A stretch of DNA of 55,336 bases from a virus (taxonomy: Duplodnaviria > Heunggongvirae > Uroviricota > Caudoviricetes). Both the position numbers and the translations under genes were made by a program. The notes beneath the pieces were generated by a model. The model worked only from the letters and a program-made list of their open reading frames with translations, made no database searches and was not told where the DNA came from. The stretch lies in IMG/VR virus record IMGVR_UViG_2541047870_000005. The stretch is one strand, 5' to 3'. Shown here one piece after another: positions 19,101 through 43,399 of this stretch; position 1 is the first letter of the stretch, and every line of letters starts with the position of its first letter.

Positions 19101-19751
19101 TCAGCGGCTGTCATTGCGCAGTCTGCGCTCCAGCTGCTGTTTGTCTTTTTTCACGCCACAGCGGGGATCGAGCTGTAACGCATGGTTGAGATGATTAAGG
19201 GCGGAAGCCGGATTGCTTTCACTCAGGACAGCTCCAATCGCTTTATGCAGACGCGCCCGTGACTGGTCCGGCATATCCAGACCGTCTGTCAGCTCCAGCG
19301 TCTGCAACAACAGATCGGCATCAAAGCCGGTGGCGGCAAGCATTGCGCTCTGCGCGGCGTCTGCCATTTCCTCTGCCAGCACGGTCTGCACGTTGCGGTT
19401 ACCCAGCGGCATCACCCAGCCATGACGCAGAGCATGACGCCCAATCTCCAGCGCCCCGGCATAATCTCCGGCATCAATGCGCCACAGCATCACGTACATC
19501 AGCACGTCATCCTGTTGAGCGCCTCCGGCAGCCAGGACACCCTCCGCCCAGGCGGCGTACTTCGGCAGCAGCTCCACTTTGATTTCCGCTTTTTTGACCG
19601 TGGACTGAACGCCCTTGAGACGGCGGCGGTCTTCCGCCAGTTGCAGCAGCATCAGGTCATAGCCCGACGCGTGGCGAACACTGCCACCCTCACGAGCGGC
19701 CTGTTCAGCCTGAACGCGCAGGCGATGCTGCCGTGCGGGACTCAGGCTCAT
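19101..19751 (-). CDS. M: Terminase endonuclease (small) subunit gpM-like
   Basis: 216-aa ORF between N and L. Confidence 0.7.
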   Translation of the reverse strand: MSLSPARQHRLRVQAEQAAREGGSVRHASGYDLMLLQLAEDRRRLKGVQSTVKKAEIKVELLPKYAAWAEGVLAAGGAQQDDVLMYVMLWRIDAGDYAGALEIGRHALRHGWVMPLGNRNVQTVLAEEMADAAQSAMLAATGFDADLLLQTLELTDGLDMPDQSRARLHKAIGAVLSESNPASALNHLNHALQLDPRCGVKKDKQQLERRLRNDSR

Positions 19752-20829: not shown

Positions 20830-21663
20830 TCAGCAATTGGTCAGAGTGTCAGCGGTGGCGTTACCGCCTGTTGCACGCTGGCGGTAGTCCTGGCGGCTGT
20901 CTTCATGACTCAGCTTATTCACCAGTTCGTTAAAGGCGGTCTGCTGTGCCTGCAGGGCAGTCTCCAGCTCAGACAGACGTTCTTCCTGCTCAGACAGGGA
21001 TTTTTCGGTGCGTGCGCTCAGGTTTTGCTGCTCAGTGGCGACCAGCTCCACGGCCTTATGCACATCAGAGAACCGGGCATCGTCGGACTGCTCTTTTTTG
21101 GTAAACAGCGCCGTGACGCGGGCAAACAGGGACAGTTTGTCATCTTGGACTTCTTCCAGTTCGATCACCGTTTCCTCTGCAGCGGTAAAAAGATTGGCGG
21201 GATTCTGCTTGCGGTTTGCCAGCGGGTTATGGGCTGCACAGGCGCTGAATGTCAGCATTTCCGTACCCAGACTGGCTGGATCATCAGTGGCAGCCAGGCC
21301 AACCAGGTAGGCTTTGCCCGTATCAGCAAACTTCGGGCTGACTTCCATAGAGGTGAATAATTTCTGGCCTTTTTTCACCAGCTCCACCAGAGATTCTGTT
21401 GGCTCAACGTCGGCATACAGCGCCATCTTGCCTGCCAGCGGACCTTCCGTGATTTCTTCAGCAAACAGCGCCGTCACCTTGCCGTAGCGGTTAAAGGTGC
21501 TGTCCGGCAGATAAGACTTGATGTGCTCAAGGTTAATCAGCGCGGTATACATTGCCGGGTTGTAGCTGGCTGCCATCTGTTCCAGCCATTCACGCTGGAT
21601 TTCGCGTCCGTCGGTGGTGGCACCTTCCACCCCGATGCGAAAACGCTTTGCTTTCACTGTCAT
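20830..21663 (-). CDS. O: Capsid scaffolding protein gpO-like
   Basis: 277-aa ORF, divergent from the P/Q operon. Confidence 0.8.
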   Translation of the reverse strand: MTVKAKRFRIGVEGATTDGREIQREWLEQMAASYNPAMYTALINLEHIKSYLPDSTFNRYGKVTALFAEEITEGPLAGKMALYADVEPTESLVELVKKGQKLFTSMEVSPKFADTGKAYLVGLAATDDPASLGTEMLTFSACAAHNPLANRKQNPANLFTAAEETVIELEEVQDDKLSLFARVTALFTKKEQSDDARFSDVHKAVELVATEQQNLSARTEKSLSEQEERLSELETALQAQQTAFNELVNKLSHEDSRQDYRQRATGGNATADTLTNC

Positions 21664-21805
21664 GAGCCGTGCTCCGTTAGAAAAAACTTACTGGAGCCTT
21701 ATGGTTGCGGTGATGGGTGCAGTGAAACAATGCGCGGTATTTGTACCGACAACCACACAAACCGCAGGCGGGGAAAGCCTTCATTCAAGGCTGTAGGTTT
21801 GTGCC

Positions 21806-23572
21806 ATGAACACCACACTGACACCCGCAGATCTCGATCCCCGTCGGCAGGCCATGCTGCTGTACTTTCAGGGATACCGCGTAGCCCGCATTGCTGAAAT
21901 GCTGGGCGAGAAAGTTGCAACCGTTCACAGCTGGAAAAAACGCGACAAGTGGGGTGACTATGGGCCGCTGGATCAGATGCAGCTCACCACCGCCGCACGC
22001 TACTGCCAGCTCATTATGAAGGAGCACAAAGAAGGGAAAGATTTCAAAGAGATTGACCTGCTGGCGCGCCAGTCTGAGCGCCACGCGCGGATCGGCAAGT
22101 TTAACAATGGCGGCAACGAAGCCGACTTAAACCCTAACGTCGCCAACCGCAATAAAGGCCCACGCCGTCAGCCGGAAAAGAATGTTTTCACCGATGAGCA
22201 GATTGAGAAGCTGGAAGAAATCTTCCATTCTTCCATGTTCAACTACCAGCGCCACTGGTGGGAAGCAGGAAAAACCAACCGCATCCGCAACCTGCTGAAG
22301 TCACGCCAGATCGGCGCGACCTTTTACTTTGCCCGTGAAGCCCTGATTGACGCCCTGCTTACCGGACGTAACCAGATTTTCCTTTCTGCCAGTAAGGCAC
22401 AGGCCCATGTCTTCAAACAGTACATCATCGACTTTGCCAAAGAAGTGGAGGTGGAGCTGAAAGGCGATCCGATGGTGCTTCCTAACGGGGCCACGCTTTA
22501 CTTCCTCGGCACCAATGCCCGCACAGCCCAGAGTTATCACGGCAACCTGTATCTGGATGAATATTTCTGGATCCCAAAATTCCAGGAGTTGCGCAAAGTG
22601 GCTTCCGGTATGGCTATTCACAAGAAATGGCGACAGACCTATTTTTCCACGCCATCCAGCCTGACCCACAGTGCTTATCCGTTCTGGTCCGGTGCGCTGT
22701 TCAACCGTGGACGCAACAAAGCCGACAAGGTGGACATCGACCTGTCCCACAGCAATCTTGCCCCCGGCCTGCTGTGCGCAGACGGGCAATACCGCCAGAT
22801 AGTCACCGTGGAAGACGCGGTGCGCGGCGGCTGTAACCTGTTCGACCTTGACCAGTTGCGCATGGAGTACAGCCCGGATGAATACCAGAACCTGCTGATG
22901 TGCGAGTTCGTGGACGATCTCGCGTCCGTGTTTCCGCTCAGCGAACTGCAGGCGTGCATGGTGGACAGCTGGGAAGTCTGGACCGACTTTCATGCACTGG
23001 CCCTGCGCCCGTTTGGCTGGCGCGAAGTATGGATCGGTTATGACCCGGCGAAAGGTACGCAGAACGGCGACAGTGCCGGATGCGTGGTGGTGGCTCCGCC
23101 AGCCGTGCCGGGCGGTAAGTTCCGCATTCTTGAGCGTCACCAATGGCGCGGGATGGACTTCCGCGCCCAGGCGGACGCCATCAAAAAACTGACCGAACAG
23201 TACAACGTGACCTATATCGGCATCGACTCGACAGGTGTAGGTCACGGGGTTTATGAGAACGTGAAAGCGTTCTTTCCTGCCGTCCGGGAGTTTGTTTACA
23301 ACCCCAACGTTAAAAACGCCCTGGTACTCAAGGCCTACGACATTATCAGCCACCGCCGTCTGGAGTTTGACGCCGGGCACACCGACATTGCGCAGTCATT
23401 CATGGCAATCCGTCGCGCCACCACCGCCAGTGGCAACCGCCCAACCTATGAAGCCAGCCGCAGCGAAGAAGCCAGCCACGCCGATCTGGCCTGGGCAACA
23501 ATGCATGCACTGTTTAATGAACCGCTGCAGGGCGAATCCGCCAATACCAGCAATATTGTGGAGATTTTTTGA
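21806..23572 (+). CDS. P: Terminase ATPase (large) subunit gpP-like
   Basis: 588-aa ORF divergent from O, followed by the portal gene with a 4-bp overlap. Confidence 0.85.
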   Translation: MNTTLTPADLDPRRQAMLLYFQGYRVARIAEMLGEKVATVHSWKKRDKWGDYGPLDQMQLTTAARYCQLIMKEHKEGKDFKEIDLLARQSERHARIGKFNNGGNEADLNPNVANRNKGPRRQPEKNVFTDEQIEKLEEIFHSSMFNYQRHWWEAGKTNRIRNLLKSRQIGATFYFAREALIDALLTGRNQIFLSASKAQAHVFKQYIIDFAKEVEVELKGDPMVLPNGATLYFLGTNARTAQSYHGNLYLDEYFWIPKFQELRKVASGMAIHKKWRQTYFSTPSSLTHSAYPFWSGALFNRGRNKADKVDIDLSHSNLAPGLLCADGQYRQIVTVEDAVRGGCNLFDLDQLRMEYSPDEYQNLLMCEFVDDLASVFPLSELQACMVDSWEVWTDFHALALRPFGWREVWIGYDPAKGTQNGDSAGCVVVAPPAVPGGKFRILERHQWRGMDFRAQADAIKKLTEQYNVTYIGIDSTGVGHGVYENVKAFFPAVREFVYNPNVKNALVLKAYDIISHRRLEFDAGHTDIAQSFMAIRRATTASGNRPTYEASRSEEASHADLAWATMHALFNEPLQGESANTSNIVEIF

Positions 23573-24600
23573 TGGGAAAGAGTAAGAAAAACCGCGCTGC
23601 GGCGACGAATCAGCTCAAGCATAAAAGCCAGACTTCAGCCGAAGCATTCAGCTTCGGTGATCCCGTTCCTGTTCTGGACCGCCGCGAACTGCTGGACTAT
23701 GTGGAATGCGTACAAACAGATCGCTGGTATGAGCCTCCCGTCAGCTTTGACGGACTGGCGCGAACCTTCCGCGCCGCCGTGCATCACAGCTCACCGATTG
23801 CAGTGAAATGCAACATTCTGACCAGCACCTACATCCCTCACCCGCTGCTCAGCCAGCAGGCTTTTTCACGTTTTGTGCAGGACTATCTGGTATTTGGTAA
23901 CGCCTACCTGGAGAAACGCACGAACCGGTTCGGTGAAGTTATCGCCCTTGAGCCTGCTCTGGCAAAATACACCCGACGCGGGTTAGACCTGGATACCTAC
24001 TGGTTTGTGCAATACGGTATGACAACCCAGCCGTATCAGTTCACGAAAGGCAGCATTTTTCATCTGATGGAACCGGACATCAACCAAGAGATCTACGGCC
24101 TGCCAGGTTATCTTTCTGCCATCCCGTCAGCCCTGCTCAACGAGTCCGCCACACTGTTCCGCCGTAAGTATTACATCAACGGCAGCCATGCAGGTTTCAT
24201 CATGTACATGACCGATGCCGCGCAAAACCAGGAGGATGTGAACAACCTCCGCAATGCGATGAAAAGCGCCAAAGGTCCAGGCAACTTCCGCAACCTGTTT
24301 ATGTACTCGCCTAACGGCAAAAAGGACGGGCTTCAGATCATCCCATTGTCAGAAGTCGCGGCGAAGGATGAATTTCTTAATATCAAGAACGTGAGTCGGG
24401 ATGACATGATGGCAGCGCACCGCGTGCCGCCTCAGATGATGGGGATTATGCCTAATAATGTTGGGGGGTTTGGGGATGTGGAGAAGGCTAGTAAGGTTTT
24501 TGTCCGCAACGAGTTGATACCGCTGCAAAAGCGAATCAAAGAAATTAATGAATGGTTGAGTGATGAAATAATCTCTTTCCTACCATATGAATTACAATAA
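23569..24600 (+). CDS. Q: Portal protein gpQ-like
   Basis: 343-aa ORF, size and position of P2 Q. Confidence 0.85.
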   Translation: MMGKSKKNRAAATNQLKHKSQTSAEAFSFGDPVPVLDRRELLDYVECVQTDRWYEPPVSFDGLARTFRAAVHHSSPIAVKCNILTSTYIPHPLLSQQAFSRFVQDYLVFGNAYLEKRTNRFGEVIALEPALAKYTRRGLDLDTYWFVQYGMTTQPYQFTKGSIFHLMEPDINQEIYGLPGYLSAIPSALLNESATLFRRKYYINGSHAGFIMYMTDAAQNQEDVNNLRNAMKSAKGPGNFRNLFMYSPNGKKDGLQIIPLSEVAAKDEFLNIKNVSRDDMMAAHRVPPQMMGIMPNNVGGFGDVEKASKVFVRNELIPLQKRIKEINEWLSDEIISFLPYELQ

Positions 24601-24627
24601 AATAGGGCAGATACTGCCCTATTTTAA
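24601..24627. terminator. Bidirectional rho-independent terminator between convergent portal gene and cargo operon
   Basis: aaaa-tagggcag-atac-ctgccctat-tttt: 8-bp stem, 4-nt loop, A-tract on one side and T-tract on the other. Confidence 0.7.
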
Positions 24628-25476
24628 CCAAATATTATAATCCAATCTTTCTACGTATCTTGAAATAACGGCTAGAGCAATTGCTTGCCCTACACTTGTT
24701 AGTTCAATTCCTTGATAGTTGCTCTTTGAAAATTTTTCTAAAAATGCAGACACATGAGGGGCAACTAACTTAAGATTTGAAATATACGCACTCTTATCTT
24801 TTATATCAGTCGGATATTTATCCATGAAATAGTCTTCAACATCTATCCCTAAAAAAGTATTCCATGAACAAGCCCCTGCATATTGAATGTGATATATCTG
24901 GGCTTGAGACAAATTAAACCCATTAGTATACATTGGTTCAAGATTTCTAAAATTGCGCTCCAACAAATCCAATCGAACACCATTAACAGGATCTTTGATC
25001 TCAACATTCTTGAGAAGAAAAACTATCGTTATAAGTGATATTTGTTGCTGTGTTAACTTTGGAACTACAGTAACTGCCTCCGTTAAAACTATATCTCTAA
25101 AATCGTCATTGTTATTGGAGACTCGTTCAACTAACAACTGAGAAAGCACATCCATATTAGCTTTCTTTCCCTTCCTGGCTGATGACTTTAATGCCTCAGT
25201 CAATGTCGCCTGAACGTCCGGATCGCAAAATTTATCAATAATCAATCTATCAACGTTTTTTGTTAAATCCGAAACGACACGCTCTTCAAAATCTTTTGCA
25301 TTCTCTTGAGCTGCAGCATAAGCAACATCTTTCAATTTTGGGAACTGATTTTCGAAGAGAATGTTGAATAGTTCTCTAACCTCGGAAAACGACATCCCTG
25401 AAACATTTACATTATTTCCAGCTTGAATTGCATACGAATTATTACCTATTTGTTGCTTTTGTTTATCACTAAACAT
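24619..25476 (-). CDS. Hypothetical 285-aa protein, AT-rich cargo between portal gene and cos-like site; second gene of a two-gene operon
   Basis: Long AT-rich ORF 9 bp downstream of the small membrane-protein gene; no recognisable motifs. Confidence 0.7.
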   Translation of the reverse strand: MFSDKQKQQIGNNSYAIQAGNNVNVSGMSFSEVRELFNILFENQFPKLKDVAYAAAQENAKDFEERVVSDLTKNVDRLIIDKFCDPDVQATLTEALKSSARKGKKANMDVLSQLLVERVSNNNDDFRDIVLTEAVTVVPKLTQQQISLITIVFLLKNVEIKDPVNGVRLDLLERNFRNLEPMYTNGFNLSQAQIYHIQYAGACSWNTFLGIDVEDYFMDKYPTDIKDKSAYISNLKLVAPHVSAFLEKFSKSNYQGIELTSVGQAIALAVISRYVERLDYNIWLK

Positions 25477-25485
25477 ATATCCTCC

Positions 25486-25731
25486 TTATTTTTTATCACC
25501 TGTATTTATACAATCAATTTTAATATCACCGCCAGCCTGGACACCAATTGAATTATCACCAACTGATTGACTCATAGAATTATATTTATTTTTTGTAGTG
25601 ATAAGTAATCCAGCTAAAGCGCTAACTGCAGCCAAAAATGCAACAATAGAATCAAAACCAGGATCCATATAAAGCCATAATCCAGCAATCAATGCCAGTA
25701 TACATGTAATGACTATTGCAAAAATTTTCAT
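25486..25731 (-). CDS. Small membrane protein (81 aa, two predicted TM helices); first gene of the cargo operon
   Basis: Hydrophobic segments IFAIVITCILALIAGLWLY and IVAFLAAVSALAGLLIT; C-terminal motif resembles the N-terminus of the downstream protein. Confidence 0.6.
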   Translation of the reverse strand: MKIFAIVITCILALIAGLWLYMDPGFDSIVAFLAAVSALAGLLITTKNKYNSMSQSVGDNSIGVQAGGDIKIDCINTGDKK

Positions 25732-25785
25732 AAGTTCTCCTTCTAATGGAAGTGGTTATACCGAAAACAATTTCCTTTTACAACC

Positions 25786-25935
25786 ACGCTCAGCGCGCGC
25801 TCGTATCCCCGCCACGCCTGCCCGCTTTGTATAGCGGTTTTCATGCACTCGCATGGCATAAGGGAAACCTTGCCAGAACTGGCGACCCTCAGCGAAAACG
25901 ATCTTCAAACGATCATGCGGATTCATGCAGCATAG
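25786..25935. other. Putative prophage cos (packaging) region
   Basis: GC-rich non-coding segment homologous to 42890-43033; minus strand reads GGCGTGGCGGGGA, matching my recollection of the P2/186-family cohesive end. Confidence 0.5.
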
Positions 25936-26138
25936 ACAGGCACTACTGAGCAATAGCGCTTGAGTTCAGTCAGATATGAGTCCTCAATGTAATACTAATA
26001 CATCTTAACCGTTCATCATTATTCACATCGGGCTATGTAATTACAGAAAAACTTTTCACAATCAATTTTATACTGGATTATTTCAGTTTATTGTATAATT
26101 CATGACGCATGCAAATTGACATTAATTCAGGAGACAAA

Positions 26139-27050
26139 ATGACATTAATTGTAGCTGGTTTCGAAAAAGATGGAACAATTGTTTTTTGCGGGGACTCACT
26201 AATAACAACAAAAGCAAATGGAAGCACTGTAAAATTGACATCGTCCTTTAGAAAAATAATACCACTAGAAATTATTGTGCGAGTACCGGAAATCGATCCA
26301 AGTGGAAAAATCATAAATTACATTGAAAGCCTTTGCCAACATCGCTGCATGATTGCATTTGCAGGAAGCACGCTAGTTTCTCAACATATTATAAATTCTA
26401 TACAAGGTCATCTGAAACAAATAAAATACACATATGATTCTGGCACATATGACTATTCAGAAGGATGCATAAAGGGTGCTGGCTATAAGTTAATAATGGG
26501 TTGTGAAGATAACAAAAGCGTTGAGGAAACCTATTGGAACGAAGATATGTTTGTTGAGCCAGTAAAGAATGCGAACGAACTTATTAATAAAAATTTTCTA
26601 CGCAACGTCTTTAGCCACTGCATACAGAAAACCATGAATGAATTTTACATTAATATTAATGAGGAATTTAATCCAGAGTGGTTTGCAAGCGATTTCATTG
26701 TAGCTCTGTCTTGCTATGAGACTAAAAAAAACCATCTTTTTACCTTTAAAATGGAATTTAATGAGTCAGGGGTCAATCTTATAGAAAAAGAAATTAATAT
26801 CAATGAACTGGCAATAATTGGCATTTCAAGATATAGCGAAGAAATAATTCAAGCATATCAAACTCAAAAAGCGACCCTCAGTACATCTGAAATTCTCAGC
26901 CAAGAGATTACTAAAGCAATCATAGACAATGAAAGCATTGATCTTAGAGAAATAGGAGATCCTGTCGTATTAAAAAAATTCAATCAACATCGTGAATTAC
27001 GTGATGAGCAAAAACACTGGAGGTGCAATACTCCTCGAGAAAACCAATAA
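26139..27050 (+). CDS. HslV/proteasome beta-subunit-like (Ntn-hydrolase fold) protein, about 303 aa, AT-rich cargo gene
   Basis: SD aggag 5 nt upstream of ATG 26139 (ORF track starts at 26109); MTLIVAGFEKDGTIVFCGDSLIT...VKL...IAFAGST...LAIIGISRYSEEIIQAY parallels HslV [21 protein letters not shown]...KK...AGFAGGT...LIAIGSGGPYAQAAARAL (recalled from memory). Confidence 0.5.
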   Translation: MTLIVAGFEKDGTIVFCGDSLITTKANGSTVKLTSSFRKIIPLEIIVRVPEIDPSGKIINYIESLCQHRCMIAFAGSTLVSQHIINSIQGHLKQIKYTYDSGTYDYSEGCIKGAGYKLIMGCEDNKSVEETYWNEDMFVEPVKNANELINKNFLRNVFSHCIQKTMNEFYININEEFNPEWFASDFIVALSCYETKKNHLFTFKMEFNESGVNLIEKEININELAIIGISRYSEEIIQAYQTQKATLSTSEILSQEITKAIIDNESIDLREIGDPVVLKKFNQHRELRDEQKHWRCNTPRENQ

Positions 27051-27077
27051 ACGCCTCGCTATACTCGTTGTTCAACC

Positions 27078-27112
27078 TTGCTGACGCGAGAATAAAATTC
27101 TCACGTCAGCAA
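27078..27112. repeat. 13-bp inverted repeat (one mismatch) with 9-nt spacer between convergent genes
   Basis: ttgctgacgcgag-aataaaatt-ctcacgtcagcaa; no flanking T-tract, so terminator or protein-binding palindrome. Confidence 0.5.
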
Positions 27113-27123
27113 CGTTCCTGCTG

Positions 27124-27312
27124 CTAACCGAGAAGATCCATTGAGCGGTTGTATTCGTGGCTTCTGATTTTTGCCATGAGTTCATCAGTCAATTCAGAAA
27201 CCCACTGCAGAGCCAGCCCCTTCTCTTCATCATTACACTCACTAGCCGCTACAAGCTTAAGAAAAAAATCAATGCGCTGGAGCTTCAAAGACTCCAAAAA
27301 ATAGTCCTGCAT
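27124..27312 (-). CDS. Small hypothetical protein (62 aa) downstream of replication gene A
   Basis: Short AT-rich ORF; no motifs. Confidence 0.35.
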   Translation of the reverse strand: MQDYFLESLKLQRIDFFLKLVAASECNDEEKGLALQWVSELTDELMAKIRSHEYNRSMDLLG

Positions 27313-27464
27313 CTTTCCTCCTATGACACCAAAGCAATACTGTATATATAACTACTATTTATATTTACAGTATATAATAATCTTACTGATGTAAAACGTT
27401 TTTTTACGTTCATCAGCCTGATATGCCTGGTATTATTAAGAGCACAAATTGTTAACCCGCGTAA

Positions 27465-29879
27465 TTAATACAGATCCCGCCACTTATCATCTTCCTGCAA
27501 ACGCTGGTTCCGATAGAAGATACGCAGGCCTGCTCCTGACGGAATACTGCCGCCGCGAAGGAGTAAATCGACCTCTTTCTCGCTGCCATCAAATCCTCTG
27601 GACTTCAGTTCATAGACGAGCTGCTGTCGCTGATGGTCTGTAATTCGCTGTTTGTAGTCTTTACGCCGTTTCGGTTTCACCAGGCGTAACCTTGCAGCCA
27701 GTTCCCGGCGCTCTTTTTTGCTCATACTGTGCAGGTAATCGTGCAACTCCTTGTCATCCATGCGGGTAATGTCCGTTCTGGTATCCCCATCAGCTGATTT
27801 GTCTTTCCCTTGTTGGTTCAAATTTTCAGCAAGGGGACAGTTATTGCCACGAGTCCAAGGGGCGCAAGCGCCCTGGTCGGCTGCCGCCTCCTGAACGTCA
27901 ACGGCCTTACGAACCATTTTCCACTTCACCGCATGAGTGCAGATCTTGCCCTCTGCAATGGGTGACCAGATGCCATAAATACGAATACCGTGATCGCCAT
28001 AGGCGGTCGGTTCTTCGTTGATTTCATAAGCAGTTCTGATGAGGTGATATTTGCGGGGAACCAGTACGCCGCCCTGCTTCATGATGTAGGTGGCAAAACA
28101 ACCAGCATCAGCAGCAGCCAGGATTGCATCAAGGCGCGGGTTATCCAGTACCGGCGCACCTGCTTTTTTGTCCCCCTGTTGCCTTGCCGCCTGACCAGCC
28201 AGCAATCGCAGTTCACGGTAAGCCTGACGCCCCGGAATGCCAAAGAAGCGGAATTGCTGAACACGATGCAGAGACGCCCAGGCATTAACGTATTCAGCGT
28301 TATCACGCAGGGATTTACCCGTTTCCTTGCTGATCTCGCCAGCCAGACCACGCCCGTCAATGTTCTTACTGATGTATTTCGCGATGTAGCTTGTTGGCGT
28401 ACCTTTGCGCGGGTTTATCAGCTCAGACTTAAAGCGTGGTCCCGTGTTATTACCCAGCTCCTCGCGGTCTTCACGAATGGCAAACTTACGCAACAAAGCA
28501 GTAATGGTGCGGCGATCTTTTTTGCGCATAAAACACAACAGATGCCAGTGAACTGTACCGTCATGATGCGGCTCAGCCACCCGCACGCCATACCAGCGCA
28601 ATCCGGCTTTGTGCATCGCCTTACGAAATGCAGCAAACATGCCGACCAGATAATCACTGCTTTGTCTTACCGTCGCATTTGTCCAGGTCGGGTTGGGCCT
28701 GCCGTTATTTAGCGTGGAATGGAAACGTGACGGACAGGTGATGGTGTAGAAAACGGCGCAGTCACCGCGCATTTCCGCGATAAGCTCCAGACCTTTAACA
28801 CAGGCCATCATCTCATTGCGGCGATGCGCAGGGTTGCTGCTGCTGGCGTTTACCACATCCTCCATGTCCAGCGTGTCGCCGTCTTCGTTCACCAGTTCAT
28901 GAGAACGGAAAAACTCCAGTGACTTGCGGCGCTGCTCACGTTTATGCATCACGGCTTCATAGCTGACATAGGGAGATGCTTTTTTGCTGACCAGGCAAAC
29001 AGCACGCAACTGCTCTTCCCGCCATTCGCAACGCATCTTCCACAATTTCCGATACCACCAGTCGGCGCACAGCATACGCGCCAGCGACCCCGGAATGAGT
29101 TCATAGGGCACGGGTTTACGGCGGTTTCTTTTCCGGCGGAGTTGCTCAAACGCAGGCGGTATGACATCCAGTCGCAGGGTTTCTGCTGCCACCTTTTCCC
29201 ATGTCTTGCGGATTTCTTCTGGCTTAACATCATCGGTGGCATACAAATCGCCACAAGCAGCATCAAGGCACATGCTCATATGCGCAGCTACCAAGGTGGA
29301 CAGGCGTTTCACCTGATCCTGACTCATTTCAGGCAGAATCAGCAGGCCATCCAGCCCTTCATGGCTTGCCATAAAGCGAAAAGAAGTGGATAGCTGACTG
29401 TCGCGTACATGCTCCAGCCGTTCCAGACATGGCTTAATCGTCTCACGCAAATAGCGGGAATAAGCCTTTGGCCTGCCCAGGCTGCTGAAGTATTCAATAC
29501 GTTGCATCAGCGGCTTGCTGATATGGGAAGGCTGGGCGTTAACGTCCGCCAGAATGACCATGTCTGGATTAAAACGCTGCTGCTCATGCGCCAGCTTTGC
29601 CCAGCTAATGAGCTTATCCTGCTCCATTTCGCGTTGGACAGGATCACGGGATTCATTAAAGAAATAACGCTCCCAGACCTGAGCACTCAGTGCCTCGCGG
29701 CGCAGCTGTTCCTGCTCGTTATCGGCAGCGTACAGAGTGATCAGGTTTGAAAGCGCAGAAACCGGCGCGACTTCCGCCGGGTCCAGATAAGGGTTAATGG
29801 CCTTTTTCGGGCTGTTCCATGAGAATGCTGCGGCGGCCTCGTTAAAGCCGCTGCAGTTGTTCATATCAGCATGGCTCAT
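27465..29879 (-). CDS. A: Replication initiation protein gpA-like (rolling-circle endonuclease)
   Basis: 804-aa ORF in the position of P2/186 A; contains YIAKYISK-type tyrosine motif. Confidence 0.8.
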
Positions 29880-30733
29880 GCACGCACTCCGTTCACGGCA
29901 GAACTATCCACGCCACGCAAAGGATCAAATCCCACCCAGCAGCGCGCCCCGGAAACAGCGATGATTTCTGTTGCAGATTTACTCTCACCAGCTGCTACGC
30001 CGATGCTGCGTTTTGCCTTGATGTAGTGGTGAGTAAAATTGCGATACAGCGAACGGATCAGGGATGTGTCACTGTTAGAAACAATGACCGGATGTCCTTC
30101 AGATGCTCGATGTTCAAGAACGGATGCCAGGTGATACTGGTCATCTTCAGTGAAACCATCAGTGTGATAGCCGGAAAACGTACCGTCATACGGCGGATCG
30201 CAATACACCACATCCCCCGCCTTCAACATCGCCAGCGTTTCATCAAAGCTGGCGCAGATAAACGTTGCCCGCTGGGCTTTTTCTGCAAATGCGCGAATTT
30301 CTTTTTCAGGTAAATACGGATTTTTATAATTACCGTAGGGAATGTTGAAATGCCCGCTCTTGTTATAGCGATATAAACCACGGTAACCGTGACGATTGAG
30401 ATACAGGAAATATACCGCTTTCATGAAATCAGTAATTTCAGTTGAGTAATTAAACTCCTGCCTTATGTTGTAATAAGCTACCTCCCTGTTTGCGATCTCA
30501 AATAAAACTCTGGCGCGAGATATAAACGATTCACAATCAGCGGCAACCTTTTTATAGAGGTTGATTAAATCAGGATTAATATCCGCAACCAGATAGCTTG
30601 GATAATCCGTCTCCATCATCACCGCACAGGAACCCGCGAAAGGTTCAACCAGTCGCGGGCCAGCAGGAAGGTGTTTTTTCAGTTCGGACATAATTGCGGT
30701 TTTATTTCCCGCCCATTTCAGGATGGTGCTCAT
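29876..30733 (-). CDS. dam: Phage DNA adenine methyltransferase (Dam family)
   Basis: ILKWAGNK...LVEPFAGS...DIN.DLI.LY...DPPY motifs; start taken at the internal Met ([11 protein letters not shown]); the ORF track extends to 30793. Confidence 0.8.
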
Positions 30734-30957
30734 ACAGCACCTCCGTTGTAATGTTTGCCTTTCAGCTCTGCGATTTCCTGACAGGTAATGCAAAGCTGCA
30801 CACCCGGAATGGCACGACGGCGTGCTGGCGGAATTGGCGCTTCACACTCAACGCAAAGCACGCGGGACACGCCCGGTGTTTTGGCACGGGCAGCACGGAT
30901 ATGACGTTGGCGTTCTTCTTCAACTCGCTGCTGTACGAGATCCATTGCATCAGCCAT
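30730..30957 (-). CDS. TraR/DksA-family C4 zinc-finger protein
   Basis: 75-aa ORF with CVEC...CITC four-cysteine motif. Confidence 0.7.
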   Translation of the reverse strand: MADAMDLVQQRVEEERQRHIRAARAKTPGVSRVLCVECEAPIPPARRRAIPGVQLCITCQEIAELKGKHYNGGAV

Positions 30958-31196
30958 CAGTGGATCTCCTGCGCTTCGTTCTGGATTGCTTCAGCAGTCA
31001 CACGCAGCAGTTCTGCCGCTTCGACGTGGTTTAACTGGCGGGATGTGATATGACACGCCAGGCTATCAAGGCGGGCAGCCATTGCCTCAGCCCTTGCCCG
31101 ACGTTCTTCAAGACGGGCCTCTGTCAGTAAAAGATTAAGACCTGCATCATCCGGTCCGGTTTTAGTCGTGAGGGTTTCAATATTACGCATAATCAA
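30957..31196 (-). CDS. Hypothetical early-region protein (79 aa)
   Basis: ORF in operon context between dam and upstream early genes. Confidence 0.5.
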   Translation of the reverse strand: MIMRNIETLTTKTGPDDAGLNLLLTEARLEERRARAEAMAARLDSLACHITSRQLNHVEAAELLRVTAEAIQNEAQEIH

Positions 31197-31257
31197 TTCT
31201 CCTGAATTTAGATAAAGGGATGCCCGGCGGGTTTACGCCATTAATTTCATTAGTTGG

Positions 31258-31599
31258 TTAATTCGGCATGGTTAGCCGTCTGGGAAATAAGCTCACCACT
31301 GCACGAAAATGATTCATTGCTTTAATCAACTCCCGCTTTTCGTCAGTGGTCAGCTCATTAATGCTGATGCTATGACGTTCAGCTGGAATTTTTGCCATAA
31401 AGAATATGGCAGCCAGTGCCCGTTTATTTTGTTCGCTATTAATATCCCGTGAATCACGCATATCTTTAATAAACCGCTCAAGCTCTGACTCAATATTCAG
31501 GCCAAAAACTTTCGCCCTTAACTCCGCAATGTGATTAAGTCCATTCAGGCGTTCACCGGGGCTTAATGGAACAGTCGCCGCAGTGCCTTCAATAGCCAT
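31258..31599 (-). CDS. Hypothetical early-region protein (113 aa)
   Basis: ORF in the early operon. Confidence 0.5.
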   Translation of the reverse strand: MAIEGTAATVPLSPGERLNGLNHIAELRAKVFGLNIESELERFIKDMRDSRDINSEQNKRALAAIFFMAKIPAERHSISINELTTDEKRELIKAMNHFRAVVSLFPRRLTMPN

Positions 31600-31680
31600 T
31601 TATGCATCCCACAACACATCTACTAAAAAATTTTTGATATGATCCATTACCAACATATTGATAGCTAGAAGGAATCATCA

Positions 31681-31929
31681 ATGTTGAACCCGGTTGAAAG
31701 AGAGCGTATAGAGCAACTTGAAAACGAGATCTCCAGTCTTCGCGATGAGGTTGCTGTTCAACGAATTCTTGTTTCAGGTCTGATCCACTCCTTATTTCGA
31801 ACTGACTCAGCAAATCAATCAGCATTTTTTGAGCTCCTCCGCGAAGAATTAAACAAACTTCCTTTAGGTTCGGTTAAACAACAAGAATTCACTCATCTGA
31901 TACAGACACTGATAGATCGTTACCGATAA
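31681..31929 (+). CDS. Hypothetical coiled-coil protein (82 aa) on the strand opposite to the early operon
   Basis: SD-like aggaa upstream of the ATG; competes with minus-strand ORF 31589-31825. Confidence 0.35.
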   Translation: MLNPVERERIEQLENEISSLRDEVAVQRILVSGLIHSLFRTDSANQSAFFELLREELNKLPLGSVKQQEFTHLIQTLIDRYR

Positions 31930-32144
31930 ATATTTCGCCGATAACGTTCAAGAGGTGATGTCTTTATACGCATCACTTCTTGTACTTTTTCACCACGTAT
32001 AAAGGTTCCATCCTTTAGCGTGAAAAAGTAGCTACCATCGCCCGACAACGACGGATAACAACAGAGCAAATCATCTTCAGGTACTGAATAATTCTCCCCT
32101 CTGTAACGAAAGTGATAAACCACTTTATTTTCTGCCGCATACAT
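31920..32144 (-). CDS. Hypothetical early-region protein (74 aa)
   Basis: ORF downstream of cII; overlapping alternative frame 32015-32341 not excluded. Confidence 0.35.
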   Translation of the reverse strand: MYAAENKVVYHFRYRGENYSVPEDDLLCCYPSLSGDGSYFFTLKDGTFIRGEKVQEVMRIKTSPLERYRRNIYR

Positions 32145-32318
32145 TTGGACTTTCTCCGTTTCCTCGTGGTCAATTCAGACAGCAATTCATCTTGTGAACG
32201 GCACGGATGCCAGCGTTTACCATCCTCACCCATGATCCAGCCGTGACCGTAGTGCATTGCCGGGCTTTGTTTTACCAGCAGCGATGCAAATGATGGTTCT
32301 TTCGTCAGCATAAGCACC

Positions 32319-32828
32319 TCACAGCAAACCGAATGAAGCACCGAGGCCAGTCACGGTATCAACTGCACTCGCCATCGCAGGATTAGCCTGTAAACGGGCC
32401 TGCAATGAAACAGCCGCCAGCGCCATCAGTCGTGTTACAGAGTTAATGCTGCTGATAGCATCACGACGACCGGCACAGGTTTTTACATCGCCAGATACCG
32501 CACCTGCAGCAACACGCCCGATCTCTGCGGTTGCACTCATGACGTAATGTGGCAGTTTCTCTTTTGCCACCTCATTAATCGGTACACATGGCAGACAATG
32601 AATCTGAGCCAGAAAGCCATCGACCAGCGTTGAATCTTCAGTCAGATCGGTAAGCAACCAGATTTCTGACGGCGTGAGCTGATGTGATTGTTCCGGGTTA
32701 AGCTTGTTACGCAGCGTCTGGACGTTCATTCCCGCGCGTTCTGCCAGCTTCGCCATGTTGTGACGCAGTGCGAAAGCCCGACAGGCTTCATCAAAATGCG
32801 GATGTTTGGAAATCTTGTAATCAAACAT
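32319..32828 (-). CDS. cII: CII-like establishment regulator (186 type)
   Basis: 169-aa ORF downstream of apl, divergent from cI, same size as 186 CII; HTH-like NVQTLRNKLN. Confidence 0.65.
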   Translation of the reverse strand: MFDYKISKHPHFDEACRAFALRHNMAKLAERAGMNVQTLRNKLNPEQSHQLTPSEIWLLTDLTEDSTLVDGFLAQIHCLPCVPINEVAKEKLPHYVMSATAEIGRVAAGAVSGDVKTCAGRRDAISSINSVTRLMALAAVSLQARLQANPAMASAVDTVTGLGASFGLL

Positions 32829-32860
32829 GGTGCTCCCTTAGAAAGTTCCCATAATTGAAG

Positions 32861-33103
32861 TTACTTACCAACAATGACGCGGAAGTTGGAATGACCGAGG
32901 GATTCACGGACCTGATCAGTTTTGTACATCAGATAACGCAGGCTTACGCGGCCTTTGTTTTTTTCTTTCTTGACCATGTACTTAGCGAGTTGGCCATGGT
33001 GAATTTTTTGGTAAACAGACCCACGGGAAATACCTTCCCATTCAGCGAATTCAGCAGGCGTAGCCATCTCTTTTGGTACACGAATTGAAATATCTGTGCT
33101 CAT
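32861..33103 (-). CDS. apl: Apl/Cox-like excisionase-repressor
   Basis: 80-aa ORF, first gene of the rightward-type operon facing cI; HTH-like AEWEGISRGSVYQKI. Confidence 0.65.
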   Translation of the reverse strand: MSTDISIRVPKEMATPAEFAEWEGISRGSVYQKIHHGQLAKYMVKKEKNKGRVSLRYLMYKTDQVRESLGHSNFRVIVGK

Positions 33104-33210
33104 AGTGCAGTATCCTTAGATTTAAGTTAGTTTTATCTCGTTTTAGCTCACTTTTCGGGATTCCCCTTGCGGGATAATCGCGATACTACGATCACTTTAA
33201 GTGGTCGTCA
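33104..33210. promoter_or_regulatory. Lysis-lysogeny switch region (divergent promoters/operators between apl and cI)
   Basis: 107-bp intergenic region between divergent regulator genes; positional inference. Confidence 0.45.
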
Positions 33211-33855
33211 ATGGAGTATTTGATGATCAACATTCAGGCAGGTCCCAATACGGGAGGTAGAGAGGCGATCGAAAGATTGCTTAAGGCATATGGATTCAGC
33301 ACCAAACAAGCACTAGCTGACCATTTAAAAATTTCAAAAAGCACTATGGCAAACAGAAACTTACGAGATAGCTTTCCTGCTGAGTGGGTCATCCAGTGTG
33401 CACTTGAAACAGGGGTTTCGCTGCTATGGCTAGCCACAGGCCAGGGTGAAATGTTCACTTCAGAAGATCGAGAAAAAAATCCCGTAAACGAGTCAAACGT
33501 CACGCTTCGACCACTTTCCAAAATCGTTGCCCCCAGCATTAAGCAAGCCGAATTGAAGAATGGGGAGTTGAATAACGAAGGGGAAGTCTTGCTTGATAGC
33601 AGCTTACTGGACAGTGAGCCCGGCAATTCATTGTTTATAAAAACGTCTACTGACTGCTTTGTAGTGGATATATCTGTCAAACAGGTTAGCAATGGTTACT
33701 GGCTTGTCGATATTGATGGGGTGAAAAGCATCGTCAAGATTGCCCGAATACCAGGCAACAGAATTGTTGTTCACCAGGACGACTCATCCTTTGAGTGTTC
33801 TGTTGATGATGTGGAAGTTGTCGGGCGAGCCATTAAAGTAATCAAGAGTATTTAG
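33211..33855 (+). CDS. cI: CI-type immunity repressor (186-like, N-terminal HTH plus C-terminal domain)
   Basis: 214-aa ORF upstream of int, HTH motif STKQALADHLKISKSTMANR; true start may be the Met at 33223. Confidence 0.75.
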   Translation: MEYLMINIQAGPNTGGREAIERLLKAYGFSTKQALADHLKISKSTMANRNLRDSFPAEWVIQCALETGVSLLWLATGQGEMFTSEDREKNPVNESNVTLRPLSKIVAPSIKQAELKNGELNNEGEVLLDSSLLDSEPGNSLFIKTSTDCFVVDISVKQVSNGYWLVDIDGVKSIVKIARIPGNRIVVHQDDSSFECSVDDVEVVGRAIKVIKSI

Positions 33856-33857
33856 TC

Positions 33858-34877
33858 ATGACCATCAGGAAACAGCCGAACGGAAAATGGTTGTGTGAGT
33901 GCTACCCTAACGGGCGGGACGGCAAGCGCGTGCGCAAGCAATTTGCGACGAAAGGCGAAGCCGTAGCATTCGAAAACTTCACCATGGATGAAGTAAACAA
34001 AAAACCATGGCTGGGGGAAAAGGAAGATCGGCGGCATCTGTCAGAAGTGATAGAGCAATGGCACTCACTATACGGGCAGACGCTCGCAGACCCCAAACGC
34101 CTGATGGCGAAACTTAGAATTATCTGTAATGGCCTGGGCGACCCTATCGCCTCAGAGCTGACCGCCGGAGATTTTACGAAATACCGTGAAGCGCGATTAA
34201 AAGGTGAAGTGCGAAATGAAGATGGCGCGCTTATGTCGCCAGTTAAGCCCCGAACGGTAAACCTCGAACAACGCAACCTATCATCAGTTTTTGGGACTCT
34301 GAAAAAACTGGGCCACTGGTCAGCCCCTAACCCGCTCGCCGGTCTGCCAACATTCAAAATCGCAGAGGGTGAACTGGCATTCCTGACCCCAGAAGAAATT
34401 AAACGCCTGCTGGATGCCTGCGCGGATTCTCAAAGCCCCAGCCTGCTGATGATTGCAAAAATATGCCTAGCTACTGGTGCGCGGTGGAGTGAAGCAGAAA
34501 ACCTGCAGGGCCATCAGTTATCAAAATACCGCATCACTTATACCAAGACGAAGGGCAAGAAAAACCGTACCGTGCCGATATCTCAGGATCTGTATGACGA
34601 ACTCCCCAAGAACAGAGGGAAGTTATTCACCCCATGCAGAAAAGCTTTTGAGCGTGCAGTTAAACGAGCTGGTATCGACTTGCCAGAGGGACAATGTACC
34701 CACGTCTTGCGCCATACATTCGCCAGTTACTTTATGATGAATGGAGGGAATATTCTTGTACTAAGAGATATTTTAGGCCATTCAGATATAAAAATGACTA
34801 TGGTCTATTCTCATTTTTCACCTGAGCATCTTGAAGATGCTGTAACAAAAAACCCTTTATCATCACTAGCGATTTAA
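33858..34877 (+). CDS. int: Tyrosine integrase (P2/186 Int family)
   Basis: 339-aa ORF after cI; C-terminal catalytic-region motifs (HVLRHTFAS, LGHSDIKMTMVYSH). Confidence 0.85.
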   Translation: MTIRKQPNGKWLCECYPNGRDGKRVRKQFATKGEAVAFENFTMDEVNKKPWLGEKEDRRHLSEVIEQWHSLYGQTLADPKRLMAKLRIICNGLGDPIASELTAGDFTKYREARLKGEVRNEDGALMSPVKPRTVNLEQRNLSSVFGTLKKLGHWSAPNPLAGLPTFKIAEGELAFLTPEEIKRLLDACADSQSPSLLMIAKICLATGARWSEAENLQGHQLSKYRITYTKTKGKKNRTVPISQDLYDELPKNRGKLFTPCRKAFERAVKRAGIDLPEGQCTHVLRHTFASYFMMNGGNILVLRDILGHSDIKMTMVYSHFSPEHLEDAVTKNPLSSLAI

Positions 34878-34881
34878 CATA

Positions 34882-36093
34882 ATGAAAATTAATAAAATTA
34901 GTACCACAGATTATGTAGCAATGCTTAATGAAATATTATTCGAAATAGAGTCCAAACCACTATTACAAGCTCCTTATCTCGCGGGAAATAATATCATTAA
35001 AGATTTTAACAATAGGGTTAAATGTTACCTAGAAGTCATAAACAAGATTTACAGTAAAAACCCTCACAACCTTGTAATTCGTGAAATAAAATCAAAAATA
35101 AAAAGCACAAAAACACTCTCGGATAAAATTTCAGAAACACTTAGATTATATTTAAACGGTAAAATCAAAGAATCTTACCTAACATTTGATCACGCTATCA
35201 CCAAGACAAATATAAATGACCACATCTATAATATGTCCGTTCCATTAAGTGTATTTTGTCATCCTGGAAAACCTCTATTTCGCGTAAGAAAAAGCGATCA
35301 AATAATAAAAGAAAGGCGTGATATCTTTCATATTCCTTTTTCTAAACGTTATCTTGTGAATGCACAAAGATACTCAGTCTCAGGCCTTCCTTGTTTATAT
35401 TTAGGAACCTCTATTTTTGTATGTTGGCAAGAAATGGAAAAACCAGACTTTGATAAATTATATGTATCTTCATTCATCACAGAGTCTGGTTCATCACATA
35501 GAATACTTAACCTTGGTTATAATTTGAGATCAGCATTGAACATAAACACCTTAGCATGGCTGTTAGATAATGATACTGAAGGAACTATGAATAGGGTCAT
35601 TTCGAACTTAATTTCCTGGCCACTTGTGTTAGCCTGTAATTATACAAAACAACATAAAAACTCTAGTTTCAACCCTGAGTACATAATCCCCAACCTTCTT
35701 ATGCAATGGCTCAGCAGCAATGAAAATAAGGGCATAGCCGGTATCGCTTATCGCACGACTAAAATTCTCAATCAAAAAGATAGTGATATTGGTATTAATA
35801 TAATCATGCCACCTAAAATGGATAATATTTTGGATTCTGGTTATGATTACTGCCCACACTTACTAAATATATTTAAATTTACCAAACCTGTTTCATGGCA
35901 AGTATTTAGCACTTTAAACGTCAAGACCGATGGTATGGATGAAGATAGACTCATAATGGGAGGACCAACTCCAGCATCAGGTACAATTGAAGATTTTGAT
36001 GAATCGCTAGTGGAATATTACAATAATACCTCATTCAAAAAAGTTCAATTGTTAATTCATAAAATGATGAAGCATGATTATCTTGAGCCTTAA
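34882..36093 (+). CDS. RES-domain-like protein (403 aa) with about 150-aa N-terminal extension; AT-rich cargo
   Basis: Segment RYSVSGLPCLYLGTSIFVCWQE reproduces the spacing of the RES-domain core (R-W-N-x-P-G-x-P-x-L-Y-x-x-x-S...E) as I recall the consensus. Confidence 0.5.
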   Translation: MKINKISTTDYVAMLNEILFEIESKPLLQAPYLAGNNIIKDFNNRVKCYLEVINKIYSKNPHNLVIREIKSKIKSTKTLSDKISETLRLYLNGKIKESYLTFDHAITKTNINDHIYNMSVPLSVFCHPGKPLFRVRKSDQIIKERRDIFHIPFSKRYLVNAQRYSVSGLPCLYLGTSIFVCWQEMEKPDFDKLYVSSFITESGSSHRILNLGYNLRSALNINTLAWLLDNDTEGTMNRVISNLISWPLVLACNYTKQHKNSSFNPEYIIPNLLMQWLSSNENKGIAGIAYRTTKILNQKDSDIGINIIMPPKMDNILDSGYDYCPHLLNIFKFTKPVSWQVFSTLNVKTDGMDEDRLIMGGPTPASGTIEDFDESLVEYYNNTSFKKVQLLIHKMMKHDYLEP

Positions 36094-36126
36094 GTGGCGG
36101 CGTTTTGGCGGTAGAGTATTAAGAGG

Positions 36127-37080
36127 ATGCAGTTACAAAAAACCTCTAACTCCATTATAGAAATAGGAAGTGATCTGATGAATAACATCATCTATACAAA
36201 CGAACAATATGAAATCGAAAATCTAAGTATAGCCCTGTATGCAATTTTCGATAAAATAAAAGAAAGGATTTCCATCGCCGAAGAATCTAACATTTACACT
36301 ATCAGAGATGTTGGTCATAACTCGGAATCTCAAGTTTGCAAAAACACTTTTAATAAATTAACGCAATTTTTTGATTCAAACATTCTTTACATCCAAGACT
36401 GTGAAGTCTTAATTTCATATATAACAGAGTGTAGTTTGGAACTCTCTGTTATAGCGCAACAATTTTATGAAATACTCTGGAGCGATTTGTTAATAACCAC
36501 ACCAGACAAAGATTTTAAAGGGATTTTAGTAGCAAAATCGCCAAAAACAAGCTTGCTATTTTCTTTGTTAAGCATGCTATTTATAAAAATGAATAGTTTG
36601 TTTGACTACGTTACTAAAATCTCCTTTGAATTATTAAAGAGTAACTTCCCAATCTCTAAATACAAGAAATTAATATCCAAAAATAAATTATACGGCAACT
36701 ATAAAGAATTAGTTTTTTCGACAACAACGGATACCATATTTGAAAATAGCAATTTTATAAACACTGTAACATCATTACGAAATCATATAATTCACCACGG
36801 TTATATAGATGAGCACCCAAAGGTATATGTTGAAGTGGAAAATGGCATTGCATTTGGGAGATTTGTACTATTCCCCGATTTGAATGAGAGTGGAGGACTG
36901 GAAAATTGCATTAACAGAACTTTATTCTATTCAAAAGAAACAAAGATTGATGAAAAATTACCTGACTTAATTAAGGAATGCCAAATTAAAGTAATTAACT
37001 CGTTGAAGGTACTAATTAAAGATCATGAAGCATTAGAAGATTCAAGAAAGACTGGCGGCACTTTGGCGGCAGAGCATTAA
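36127..37080 (+). CDS. Hypothetical 317-aa protein with HEPN-like Rx4H motif (Abi-like candidate); AT-rich cargo
   Basis: Motif LRNHIIHHGY; gene lies 33 bp downstream of the RES-like gene on the same strand. Confidence 0.45.
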   Translation: MQLQKTSNSIIEIGSDLMNNIIYTNEQYEIENLSIALYAIFDKIKERISIAEESNIYTIRDVGHNSESQVCKNTFNKLTQFFDSNILYIQDCEVLISYITECSLELSVIAQQFYEILWSDLLITTPDKDFKGILVAKSPKTSLLFSLLSMLFIKMNSLFDYVTKISFELLKSNFPISKYKKLISKNKLYGNYKELVFSTTTDTIFENSNFINTVTSLRNHIIHHGYIDEHPKVYVEVENGIAFGRFVLFPDLNESGGLENCINRTLFYSKETKIDEKLPDLIKECQIKVINSLKVLIKDHEALEDSRKTGGTLAAEH

Positions 37081-37165
37081 AAACGAGTAAAATGAACAAA
37101 CACCGAGTAATACCAACCTACTGTTTTAAAAAGCAAATCATTGTTTTTGTTATAGTTAAGATAGT

Positions 37166-37210
37166 ATGTAGGAATTTCGGACGCGGGTTCAACTCCCGCC
37201 AGCTCCACCA
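37166..37210 (+). other. ssrA: 45-nt 3' terminal fragment of tmRNA gene ssrA ending in CCA (integration core / att copy), not a complete ssrA
   Basis: atgtaggaatttcggacgcgggttcaactcccgccagctccacca matches the E. coli ssrA 3' end; sequence upstream does not continue the ssrA match. Confidence 0.8.
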
Positions 37211-37245
37211 AATAATGATCCGGATACGTCCGGTGAAGTACAGAA

Positions 37246-37279
37246 AGCCCGCATGGCACAAGCCCTGCGGGCTTTTTTG
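37246..37279 (+). terminator. Rho-independent terminator downstream of the ssrA core
   Basis: agcccgca-tggcacaagccc-tgcgggct followed by tttttt. Confidence 0.7.
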
Positions 37280-37330
37280 TGTTTGTCGTTGTCCGAGAAC
37301 ATCCGGCTAAATCCGATGATTATTGGTATA

Positions 37331-37384
37331 CGTTTCGGTATACGGTAGGATGTATACCTAAAAGCGTATACCAATTCATGAAGG
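37331..37384. promoter_or_regulatory. Cluster of four GGTATAC/GTATACC sites upstream of the satellite integrase gene
   Basis: ttGGTATACgtttcGGTATACggtaggatGTATACCtaaaagcGTATACC; the first 23 bp recur at 49543-49565. Confidence 0.5.
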
Positions 37385-37394
37385 AGCGGCCACA

Positions 37395-41757: not shown

Positions 41758-41758
41758 T

Positions 41759-43033: not shown

Positions 43034-43125
43034 TAGATATGCACTCATACGCCTTCAGGCCAGCCAGGGAAAAGGCGTAAAAAATCCCGGTACTGGACCG
43101 GGACTACGTGGGCGTATTTTGCTAA

Positions 43126-43398: not shown

Positions 43399-43399
43399 A

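Follow-up and report, generated by a model that had tools for sequence, protein, structure and literature searches.

The window (the whole stretch of 55,336 nt that was analysed) is a piece of E. coli chromosome with two mobile elements in tandem. Two related segments within it are very probably packaging sites, one for each element: a P2/186-like (Peduoviridae) prophage has its cos at site A, and the adjacent P4-like satellite has its own at site B. The arrangement is expected and already described, and it leaves the current view of P2/P4 biology unchanged. Site A is a new allele of cos in a window that is otherwise a textbook instance of the known organization. The only aspect that is mildly novel is found at site B, whose core is shifted in register, occurs in our sample only beside satellite genes and is joined to an arm that matches the helper lineage. 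The location of cos sets the genome ends and the packaging origin of both elements, and cos delimits their cargo slots to the base pair, at 25793 and about 25951 for the prophage and at 42896 for the satellite.

Two related segments in the window

The initial annotation had put forward a homology between 25786-25935 and 42890-43033. Both segments are found there and their similarity is beyond chance. The best non-self BLASTN match of 25740-26000 in the whole window is 42886-42951 (73% over 71 nt, E 2e-5), and a collinear second block follows at 43014-43045 (78% over 32 nt). The two regions have a Smith-Waterman score of 50, against 17.2 +/- 2.5 for 1000 dinucleotide shuffles, whose maximum is 29 (z = 13). 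Two sequence blocks had been named as shared. One, GGTTTTCATGCAC, is indeed common to both sites and has two exact copies in the window (25836-25848 and 42939-42951) with an expectation of 0. The other, ccccgcc(a/c)cgcctgcccgctt, is matched by site A alone: site B has there a 1-nt deletion and no substitution, and 4 more nt are missing nearby. Site B is not a simple point-mutated copy of site A, its central segment being shifted in register. The conserved element is somewhat longer than the segments first flagged, running from about 25793 to 25951 or 25959 at site A and from 42896 to about 43070 at site B.

The cos core of site A and its predicted ends

The alignment to the cos sequences of P2, 186 and P4, proposed as a check of the assignment, was run on circular cos junctions rebuilt from the GenBank ends of P2 (NC_001895), 186 (NC_001317) and P4 (NC_001609). 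Site A falls on these junctions in register, and its 55-bp core (25793-25847, minus strand) pairs with them without gaps, column for column. The core is composed of TGCATGAAAACC, 17 nt, the 19-mer GGCGTGGCGGGGATACGAG and CGCGCGC, and presents a G-rich 19-nt segment flanked by TGCATKAAAACC...AAGCGGGC and YGCGCGC. The span from TGCATKAAAACC to YGCGCGC is 55 bp in site A, P2, 186 and P4, which is the length of the conserved cos core according to Ziermann and Calendar (1990), as relayed in passages of PMC3931495 and PMC5694545. The string GGCGTGGCGGGGA, which had been read on the minus strand and likened to the 5' part of the 186/P2 cohesive end, agrees with the cohesive end of 186 at 13 of 13 positions and with that of P2 at 12 of 13. 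When right flank, 19-mer and left flank are read on this strand they are, in this order, GTGCATGAAAACCGCTATACAAAGCGGGCA, GGCGTGGCGGGGATACGAG and CGCGCGC in site A, CTGCATTAAAACCGACCCATAAAGTGGGCA, GGCGTGGCGGGGAAAGCAT and TGCGCGC in 186, and CTGCATTAAAACCGCCCCGCAAAGCGGGCG, GGCGAGGCGGGGAAAGCAC and CGCGCGC in P4.

The 19-mer (25800-25818, minus strand) is positionally homologous to the cohesive ends annotated for P2 and for 186 and is predicted to form a 19-nt 5' cohesive end. Judging from this correspondence, cleavage would take place at 25800-25818, with nicks between 25819 and 25818 on the minus strand and between 25799 and 25800 on the plus strand. The 19-mer is also the commonest variant among the 94 sites sampled by a pattern scan of IMG/VR, where it is present 31 times. 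Nothing more than about 86% identical to site A was found in the E. coli complete genomes and the phage collection.

The right arm and the classes of cos

Conservation is asymmetric around the 19-mer, covering about 130 bp on its right and 7 bp on its left. The right arm of site A (25848-25951, minus strand), which is the presumed terminase recognition region, is conserved at 78-85% in 74-93 P2-like phage records whose flanks are variable. Block conservation and the entropy profile delimit as conserved blocks of the element the GCATG pair, an imperfect palindrome, CATGCnnnTGCATGAAAACC and the core. A GCATG/CATGC motif, CATGCGAGTGCATG (25842-25855, minus strand), runs into the core, while the pair TGCATGAATCCGCATGA (25913-25929, minus strand) features two GCATG 11 bp apart. 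The imperfect palindrome CGCCAGTTCTGGCA, of the form CGCCAGnnCTGGCR, is at 25871-25884 (minus strand). A hairpin between AAAACC and the nick was considered as a further conserved feature and set aside; by eye its stem shifts in register among variants, and it is mismatched in the class A consensus.

The class A cos consensus, to which site A was compared, reads TGCATG ... NTACGAG followed by CGCGCGC, and that of the P2/186 class reads TGCATT ... AAAGCAY followed by TGCGCGC. The cos class tracks the terminase lineage: gpM has a median identity to the window protein of 95% at class A cos loci versus 49% at P2/186-class loci, and for the gpP amino terminus the values are 97% and 58%, respectively. 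The sequences are consistent with a cognate pairing of cos and terminase; the co-variation could also stem from plain linkage and shared ancestry, not from specificity.

The prophage gene map and the cargo beside cos

The prophage follows the P2-like map, with P, Q, M, O (scaffold), N (capsid), L (head completion) and A in their required places, and also has CI and an integrase. Prophage attachment repeats of at least 13 nt were searched for between 1-4000 and 34800-37400, and none was found. Both subunits of the terminase are encoded by the element that carries site A: the gpM-like small subunit (19101-19751, minus strand; PF05944, E 2.2e-40), which is the presumed cos-binding protein, and the gpP-like large subunit (21806-23572, plus strand; PF06056, PF03237, PF17289) with the ATPase/nuclease role. 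Site A sits in the interval between the gene of the gpQ-like portal protein (23569-24600, plus strand; PF04860) and the gene of the replication endonuclease gpA (27465-29879, minus strand; PF05840, E 1e-127), which is the far boundary of the cos-proximal hotspot. The predicted nick is 1.2 kb from the end of Q (24600), in agreement with the distance between cos and portal gene that had been estimated at the outset.

The space between Q and cos is taken by a cargo operon (24619-25731, minus strand) composed of an 81-aa ORF (25486-25731) and a 285-aa ORF (24619-25476), with PHROG matches to phrog_19542 and phrog_27656. The 285-aa protein belongs to the LPO_1073/Vpar_1526 family (NF045477, E 1.2e-72), and the 81-aa ORF gives a weak SLATT-like hint (E 0.05). 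A strong bidirectional terminator is found after Q at 24598-24626. The operon has a Shine-Dalgarno sequence (AAGGAG, 25737-25742) and, as read from the sequence, a possible promoter on the minus strand, TTGTAA (25778-25783) and TATAAC (25755-25760) spaced by 17 nt, which abuts the cos core. A sigma-70 promoter for the 81/285-aa operon, starting 9 bp from the core, is plausible. After packaging the operon would be no more than about 90 bp away from the left virion DNA end. On the other side of cos, between cos and A, is a gene for a 313-aa protein (26109-27050, plus strand) that matches phrog_25719 only and has no match in Pfam, PADLOC, NCBIfam or PDB sequences. It was correctly described as an insertion at this place; its label "HslV-like" finds no support in sequence-profile searches and was dropped. 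The 285-aa, 81-aa and 313-aa proteins have no PADLOC match, and their genes are candidate defence/hotspot genes.

Compared with the window, the prophage of E. coli 1-62 (NZ_CM131229) has an identity of 99.6% across 27136-36799 and of 95.6% across 20852-24572. Between these stretches only 25793-25951 aligns (82%), plus 70 bp at 27050-27119 directly upstream of the 99.6% block, and the homology resumes exactly at 25793, which sets the left edge of the functional island to the base. Since the island of 25793-25951 alone is shared there, the cargo flanking cos has been swapped on both sides. On the Q side strain 1-62 has three other genes in place of those for the 285-aa and 81-aa proteins. On the A side a DinI-like gene and a hypothetical gene stand in place of the 313-aa gene. 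The DinI/Tum-like gene present between cos and A in strain 1-62 (6010-6335 of locus L006) is absent from 25952-27135 of the window. In 186 the DinI/Tum-like gene mediates SOS induction, and because the gene is missing the prophage may not be SOS-inducible.

The P4-like satellite and site B

The second copy of the segment lies inside a satellite, as had been proposed. This element is P4-like and has site B between delta/psu and the int-proximal hotspot. On one side are the late genes (43126-44736, minus strand) coding delta (43126-43398), psu (43400-43954) and sid (43951-44736), assigned by Pfam (Ogr_Delta and Psu) and by what RefSeq annotates in the region of E. coli 1-62 that is identical. 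Across site B from them, and abutting it, the hotspot cargo is a complete Hachiman system (39175-42700, minus strand) with HamB (39175-41757, 860 aa; PADLOC E 0) and HamA (41759-42700, 313 aa; PADLOC E 9.5e-136; Pfam HamA), beyond which is the integrase gene int (37395-38594). The alpha primase is encoded at 46936-49320, and Rfam identifies isrK RNA (45949-46026) and C4 antisense RNA (46095-46182) in the immunity region, as expected in P4-like elements. Att-like repeats of 23 nt at 37321 and 49543, 12,222 bp apart, give the satellite a size of about 12.2 kb. The string TGCATTAAAACC at 38445-38456, examined as a further site, is inside the satellite int with no G-rich core adjoining it and was treated as a chance occurrence.

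Prophage and satellite follow each other in tandem; their cos sites are 17.1 kb apart and have the same orientation. Between the phage and satellite integrases are two genes of unknown function, 34882-36093 (phrog_7835) and 36127-37080 (phrog_31026). The region 34800-55336, including these two genes and the satellite, has a 100% match in seven E. coli complete genomes; the tandem satellite/prophage pair is confirmed only in strain 1-62, where a class A phage cos is likewise paired with a B-type satellite cos.

The 55-bp core of site B (42896-42950, minus strand) is a satellite variant featuring a duplication of AAGCG (42921-42930) and a centre that is 5 nt shorter. Relative to site A the extra AAGCG is on the right of the nick, the 5 nt are lost in the overhang segment, and the span of 55 bp is kept. 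The right arm spans 42951-43070 (minus strand; GCGCATGAAAACGCATGA at 43014-43031). Of 5426 complete E. coli genomes, 856 contain a match to site B. In genomes that carry other cargo in the hotspot the match to site B begins exactly at 42896. A search of the phage collection with site B returned no match. The B-type core is consistently associated with satellites: it adjoins satellite genes in all 22 viral loci, and satellite genes are within 3 kb of it in 49 of 55 metagenome loci, the other 6 having no scorable gene at that distance. None of the 22 viral and 55 metagenome loci has the core beside phage genes only. The sequence of the B-type core was not found in the full text of papers; figures lie outside such a search, and Fig. 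1A of Rousset et al. 2022 may show it. The right arm of site B, scored without the core, obtains 28.3 bits on the class A profile and 9.5 bits on the P2/186-class profile. The P4 right arm has the reverse preference (10.8 bits on the class A profile and 71.8 bits on the P2/186 profile).

The cohesive-end segment of site B differs from that of the helper, with only 10 of 19 positions matching in either register, and the ends of the satellite are predicted to differ from those of its resident helper. By its position and its frame site B still belongs to the P4-like satellite cos. Three overhangs can be envisaged depending on what is held constant: GGGCAGGCGGGCGGGGCAG (42903-42921, 19 nt) if anchored to the 55-bp frame, GGCGGGCGGGGCAGCGCAC (42898-42916, 19 nt) if anchored to the top-strand nick, and GGCGGGCGGGGCAG (42903-42916, 14 nt) if both nick contexts are kept. 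Contig ends were inspected in the 55 metagenome contigs with a B-type core. One of them, L181 (OGHK01005189.1), stops at the predicted bottom-strand nick, exactly 19 nt past ...AAGCGAAGC. It was rejected as evidence for a virion end: the next base is the first to vary among B-type sites, a branch in the assembly graph would break the contig there too, and the case stands alone. No viral contig ends at a core.

In some P4-like satellites with a B-type cos the hotspot side of this site has a complete gpQ-like portal gene, whose product has 85-86% amino acid identity to Q of the window, and others have at the same place a 39-51-aa remnant of the 3' end of such a gene (genes and remnants are at L164 3431-4399, L182 436-1404, L191 9592-9708 and L196 3914-4066). 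This looks like helper-satellite recombination at cos. One metagenome satellite site combines the AAGCG duplication with an A-type overhang segment (GGGCAGGCGTGGCGGGGGCTACGAGC) and could be intermediate between A-type and B-type cores. As this site has the duplication and yet an A-type overhang segment, the 55-bp span is not universal.

Integrity of the sites and other readings of the conserved element

Of the 100 class A positions with a conservation of 90% or more, 8 differ in site A. One departure hits a GCATG motif, GTGCCTG in place of GTGCATG, and the activity of site A may be reduced. A relic cos, at site A, site B or both, could account for these departures, as could defective elements for the missing DinI/Tum-like gene that a close relative has beside cos; the centre of site B, not identical to that of the helper, would fit a satellite that this helper does not mobilise. 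We nevertheless hold it improbable that either site has decayed in this manner or that the two elements are mismatched. Within the 55-bp core of site A a single conserved class A position is off, and it is in the spacer. Every head and packaging gene of the prophage is an intact ORF that Pfam matches over its full length. Site B is a near-consensus copy, with 1 departure in the 116 positions that are at least 90% conserved among 49 other B-type sequences, of a variant kept in hundreds of genomes, and its arm matches the class of the helper.

That the element acts as a transcription terminator or another RNA signal, instead of or besides being a packaging site, is very unlikely. The proposal would be founded on the hairpin CCGCTttgtatAGCGG followed by TTTT (25822-25841, plus strand), which is flagged by a scan for terminator-like patterns (25822-25837, plus strand) and has a counterpart at the same place in P2 and P4, where a comparable GC hairpin is followed by TTTTAATGCA. 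The stem, however, is just 5 bp; it has a mismatch in the class A consensus (CCACT/AGCGG), and the version of site B on the plus strand has C·A mismatches. No Rfam family is found at site A, and a strong bidirectional terminator is already present after Q. A terminator would also leave unexplained the conservation of 160 bp and the co-variation with the terminase lineage.

Hardly any credence can be given to coding constraint as the source of the conservation, through a small protein encoded by the 67-aa plus-strand ORF (25746-25949) or the 65-aa minus-strand ORF with a TTG start (25756-25953), even if both ORFs exist, the minus-strand one matches phrog_28685 (E 8e-23), a "hypothetical protein" is annotated across the stretch in several phage records, and 33 of 58 class A sequences have an open ORF that begins with an ATG lying upstream of the predicted nick by 108 nt: the minus-strand frame is closed in the other 25 and in 36 of 37 P2/186-class sequences, its carboxyl terminus enters non-homologous cargo DNA with no conserved stop, and the plus-strand ORF, which has no family match, is interrupted by a stop in frame in 93 of the 95 homologues. 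Outside the core the variability has no 3-base periodicity (entropy 0.655, 0.658 and 0.655 at codon positions 1, 2 and 3; permutation p = 0.51), single-base codon differences are least often synonymous in the frame of the minus-strand ORF (fraction 0.17 versus 0.25 and 0.35 in the other two), and most indels relative to site A have a length not divisible by 3 (218 versus 56). Frames closed in many homologues and the lack of a coding substitution pattern bear out the initial annotation, which had called both ORFs spurious. Phrog_28685 appears to group spurious ORFs called over the conserved cos DNA of P2-like phages.

A model for packaging of phage and satellite

If sites A and B are the cos of prophage and satellite, the helper terminase, composed of the gpM small and gpP large subunits, would bind after excision and replication to the right arm of about 130 bp with its GCATG repeats, and would then cut the 55-bp core in its G-rich centre by a pair of staggered nicks. 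The phage product would have the 19-nt 5' overhang GGCGTGGCGGGGATACGAG, its DNA being subsequently threaded through the gpQ portal. By offering the same recognition arm the satellite would have its genome of about 12.2 kb packaged by the helper terminase in capsids shrunk by Sid. We infer binding, nick positions and activity from the P2/P4 literature and from analogy with lambda cosB/cosN. Because only about 7 bp are constrained on the left of the overhang, the DNA beside cos is free to vary and holds swappable cargo.

The satellite core is a register-shifted version of the helper core. A more speculative proposal, which we regard as possible though rather doubtful, is that the P2-family terminase nicks according to the distance from its anchors, not to the overhang sequence. 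If class A helpers package these satellites efficiently, nick placement would be set by the distance of the flanking anchors. The ends of the satellite (predicted to be GGGCAGGCGGGCGGGGCAG) would then be unable to anneal to those of the helper, a difference that could be selected against the joining of satellite and helper DNA or to bias competition for the terminase. The variant core associated with satellites provides in this respect a natural test of nick-site choice by a P2-type terminase. That the satellite arm matches the lineage of the helper beside it would fit a specificity of P4-like satellites for helper lineages.

Comparison with known systems

Site A has the organization of the 186 and P2 cos: a 55-bp frame with the flanks TGCAT(T/G)AAAACC, AAGYGGGC(A/G) and (T/C)GCGCGC, a position on the portal side of the interval between Q and A, as in 186 (Eganvirus) and P2, and a right arm with GCATG repeats. 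The first 13 of the 19 nt of its cohesive end are identical to those of 186. The last 6 nt of the overhang are TACGAG in site A versus AAGCAT or AAGCAC in 186/P2; the diagnostic flank is TGCATG versus TGCATT, and the base after the overhang is C versus T. The terminase of the prophage is of another lineage than that of 186/P2, with about 49-58% identity (gpM and gpP amino terminus), and cos is separated from the portal gene by 1.2 kb of cargo versus 187-196 bp in P2 and 186.

A precedent for site A is the cos of the Salmonella phage SEN8 (Felsduovirus-like), whose published 19-mer (PMC5427200), ggcgtggcggggatacgag, is identical to that of site A and whose right arm is 83% identical. This cos is itself putative, having been inferred by annotation: feature 1-19 of NC_047753 (SEN8) is a "putative cos site", and the record ends at the position equivalent to 25819 of the window. 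SEN8 likewise carries cargo between cos and Q, namely two genes for a hypothetical protein and an HNH endonuclease, which differ from those of the window.

Site B has the map position of the P4 cos, in the order sid/psu/delta, cos, variable hotspot and int, with the 55-bp span and the reliance on a borrowed helper terminase. The window satellite has delta after psu, unlike P4. The P4 cohesive end is that of P2, whereas the centre of site B differs from that of its resident helper by the AAGCG duplication and the 5 missing nt, and its right arm is of the class A helper group, unlike the P4 arm, which is of the P2/186 group.

The lambda cos (cosN and cosB) combines a nicking site with short symmetric flanks and an asymmetric multi-repeat arm that binds terminase, and it generates 5' cohesive ends. 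It works alike to what is proposed for site A, with no sequence homology between them and with an overhang of 12 nt versus 19 nt. A further difference is that P2-type terminase acts on circular monomers. The position between cos and Q is a known site of foreign-gene uptake (PMC5694545). P2 and P4 have the core cos signal in common, and hotspots of defence genes adjoin it, which in phages lie in the gpA-gpQ interval and in satellites between psu and int (Rousset et al. 2022, PMC9122126). The layout of the window is exactly that of these hotspots, the one of the satellite being filled by Hachiman, a known defence system.
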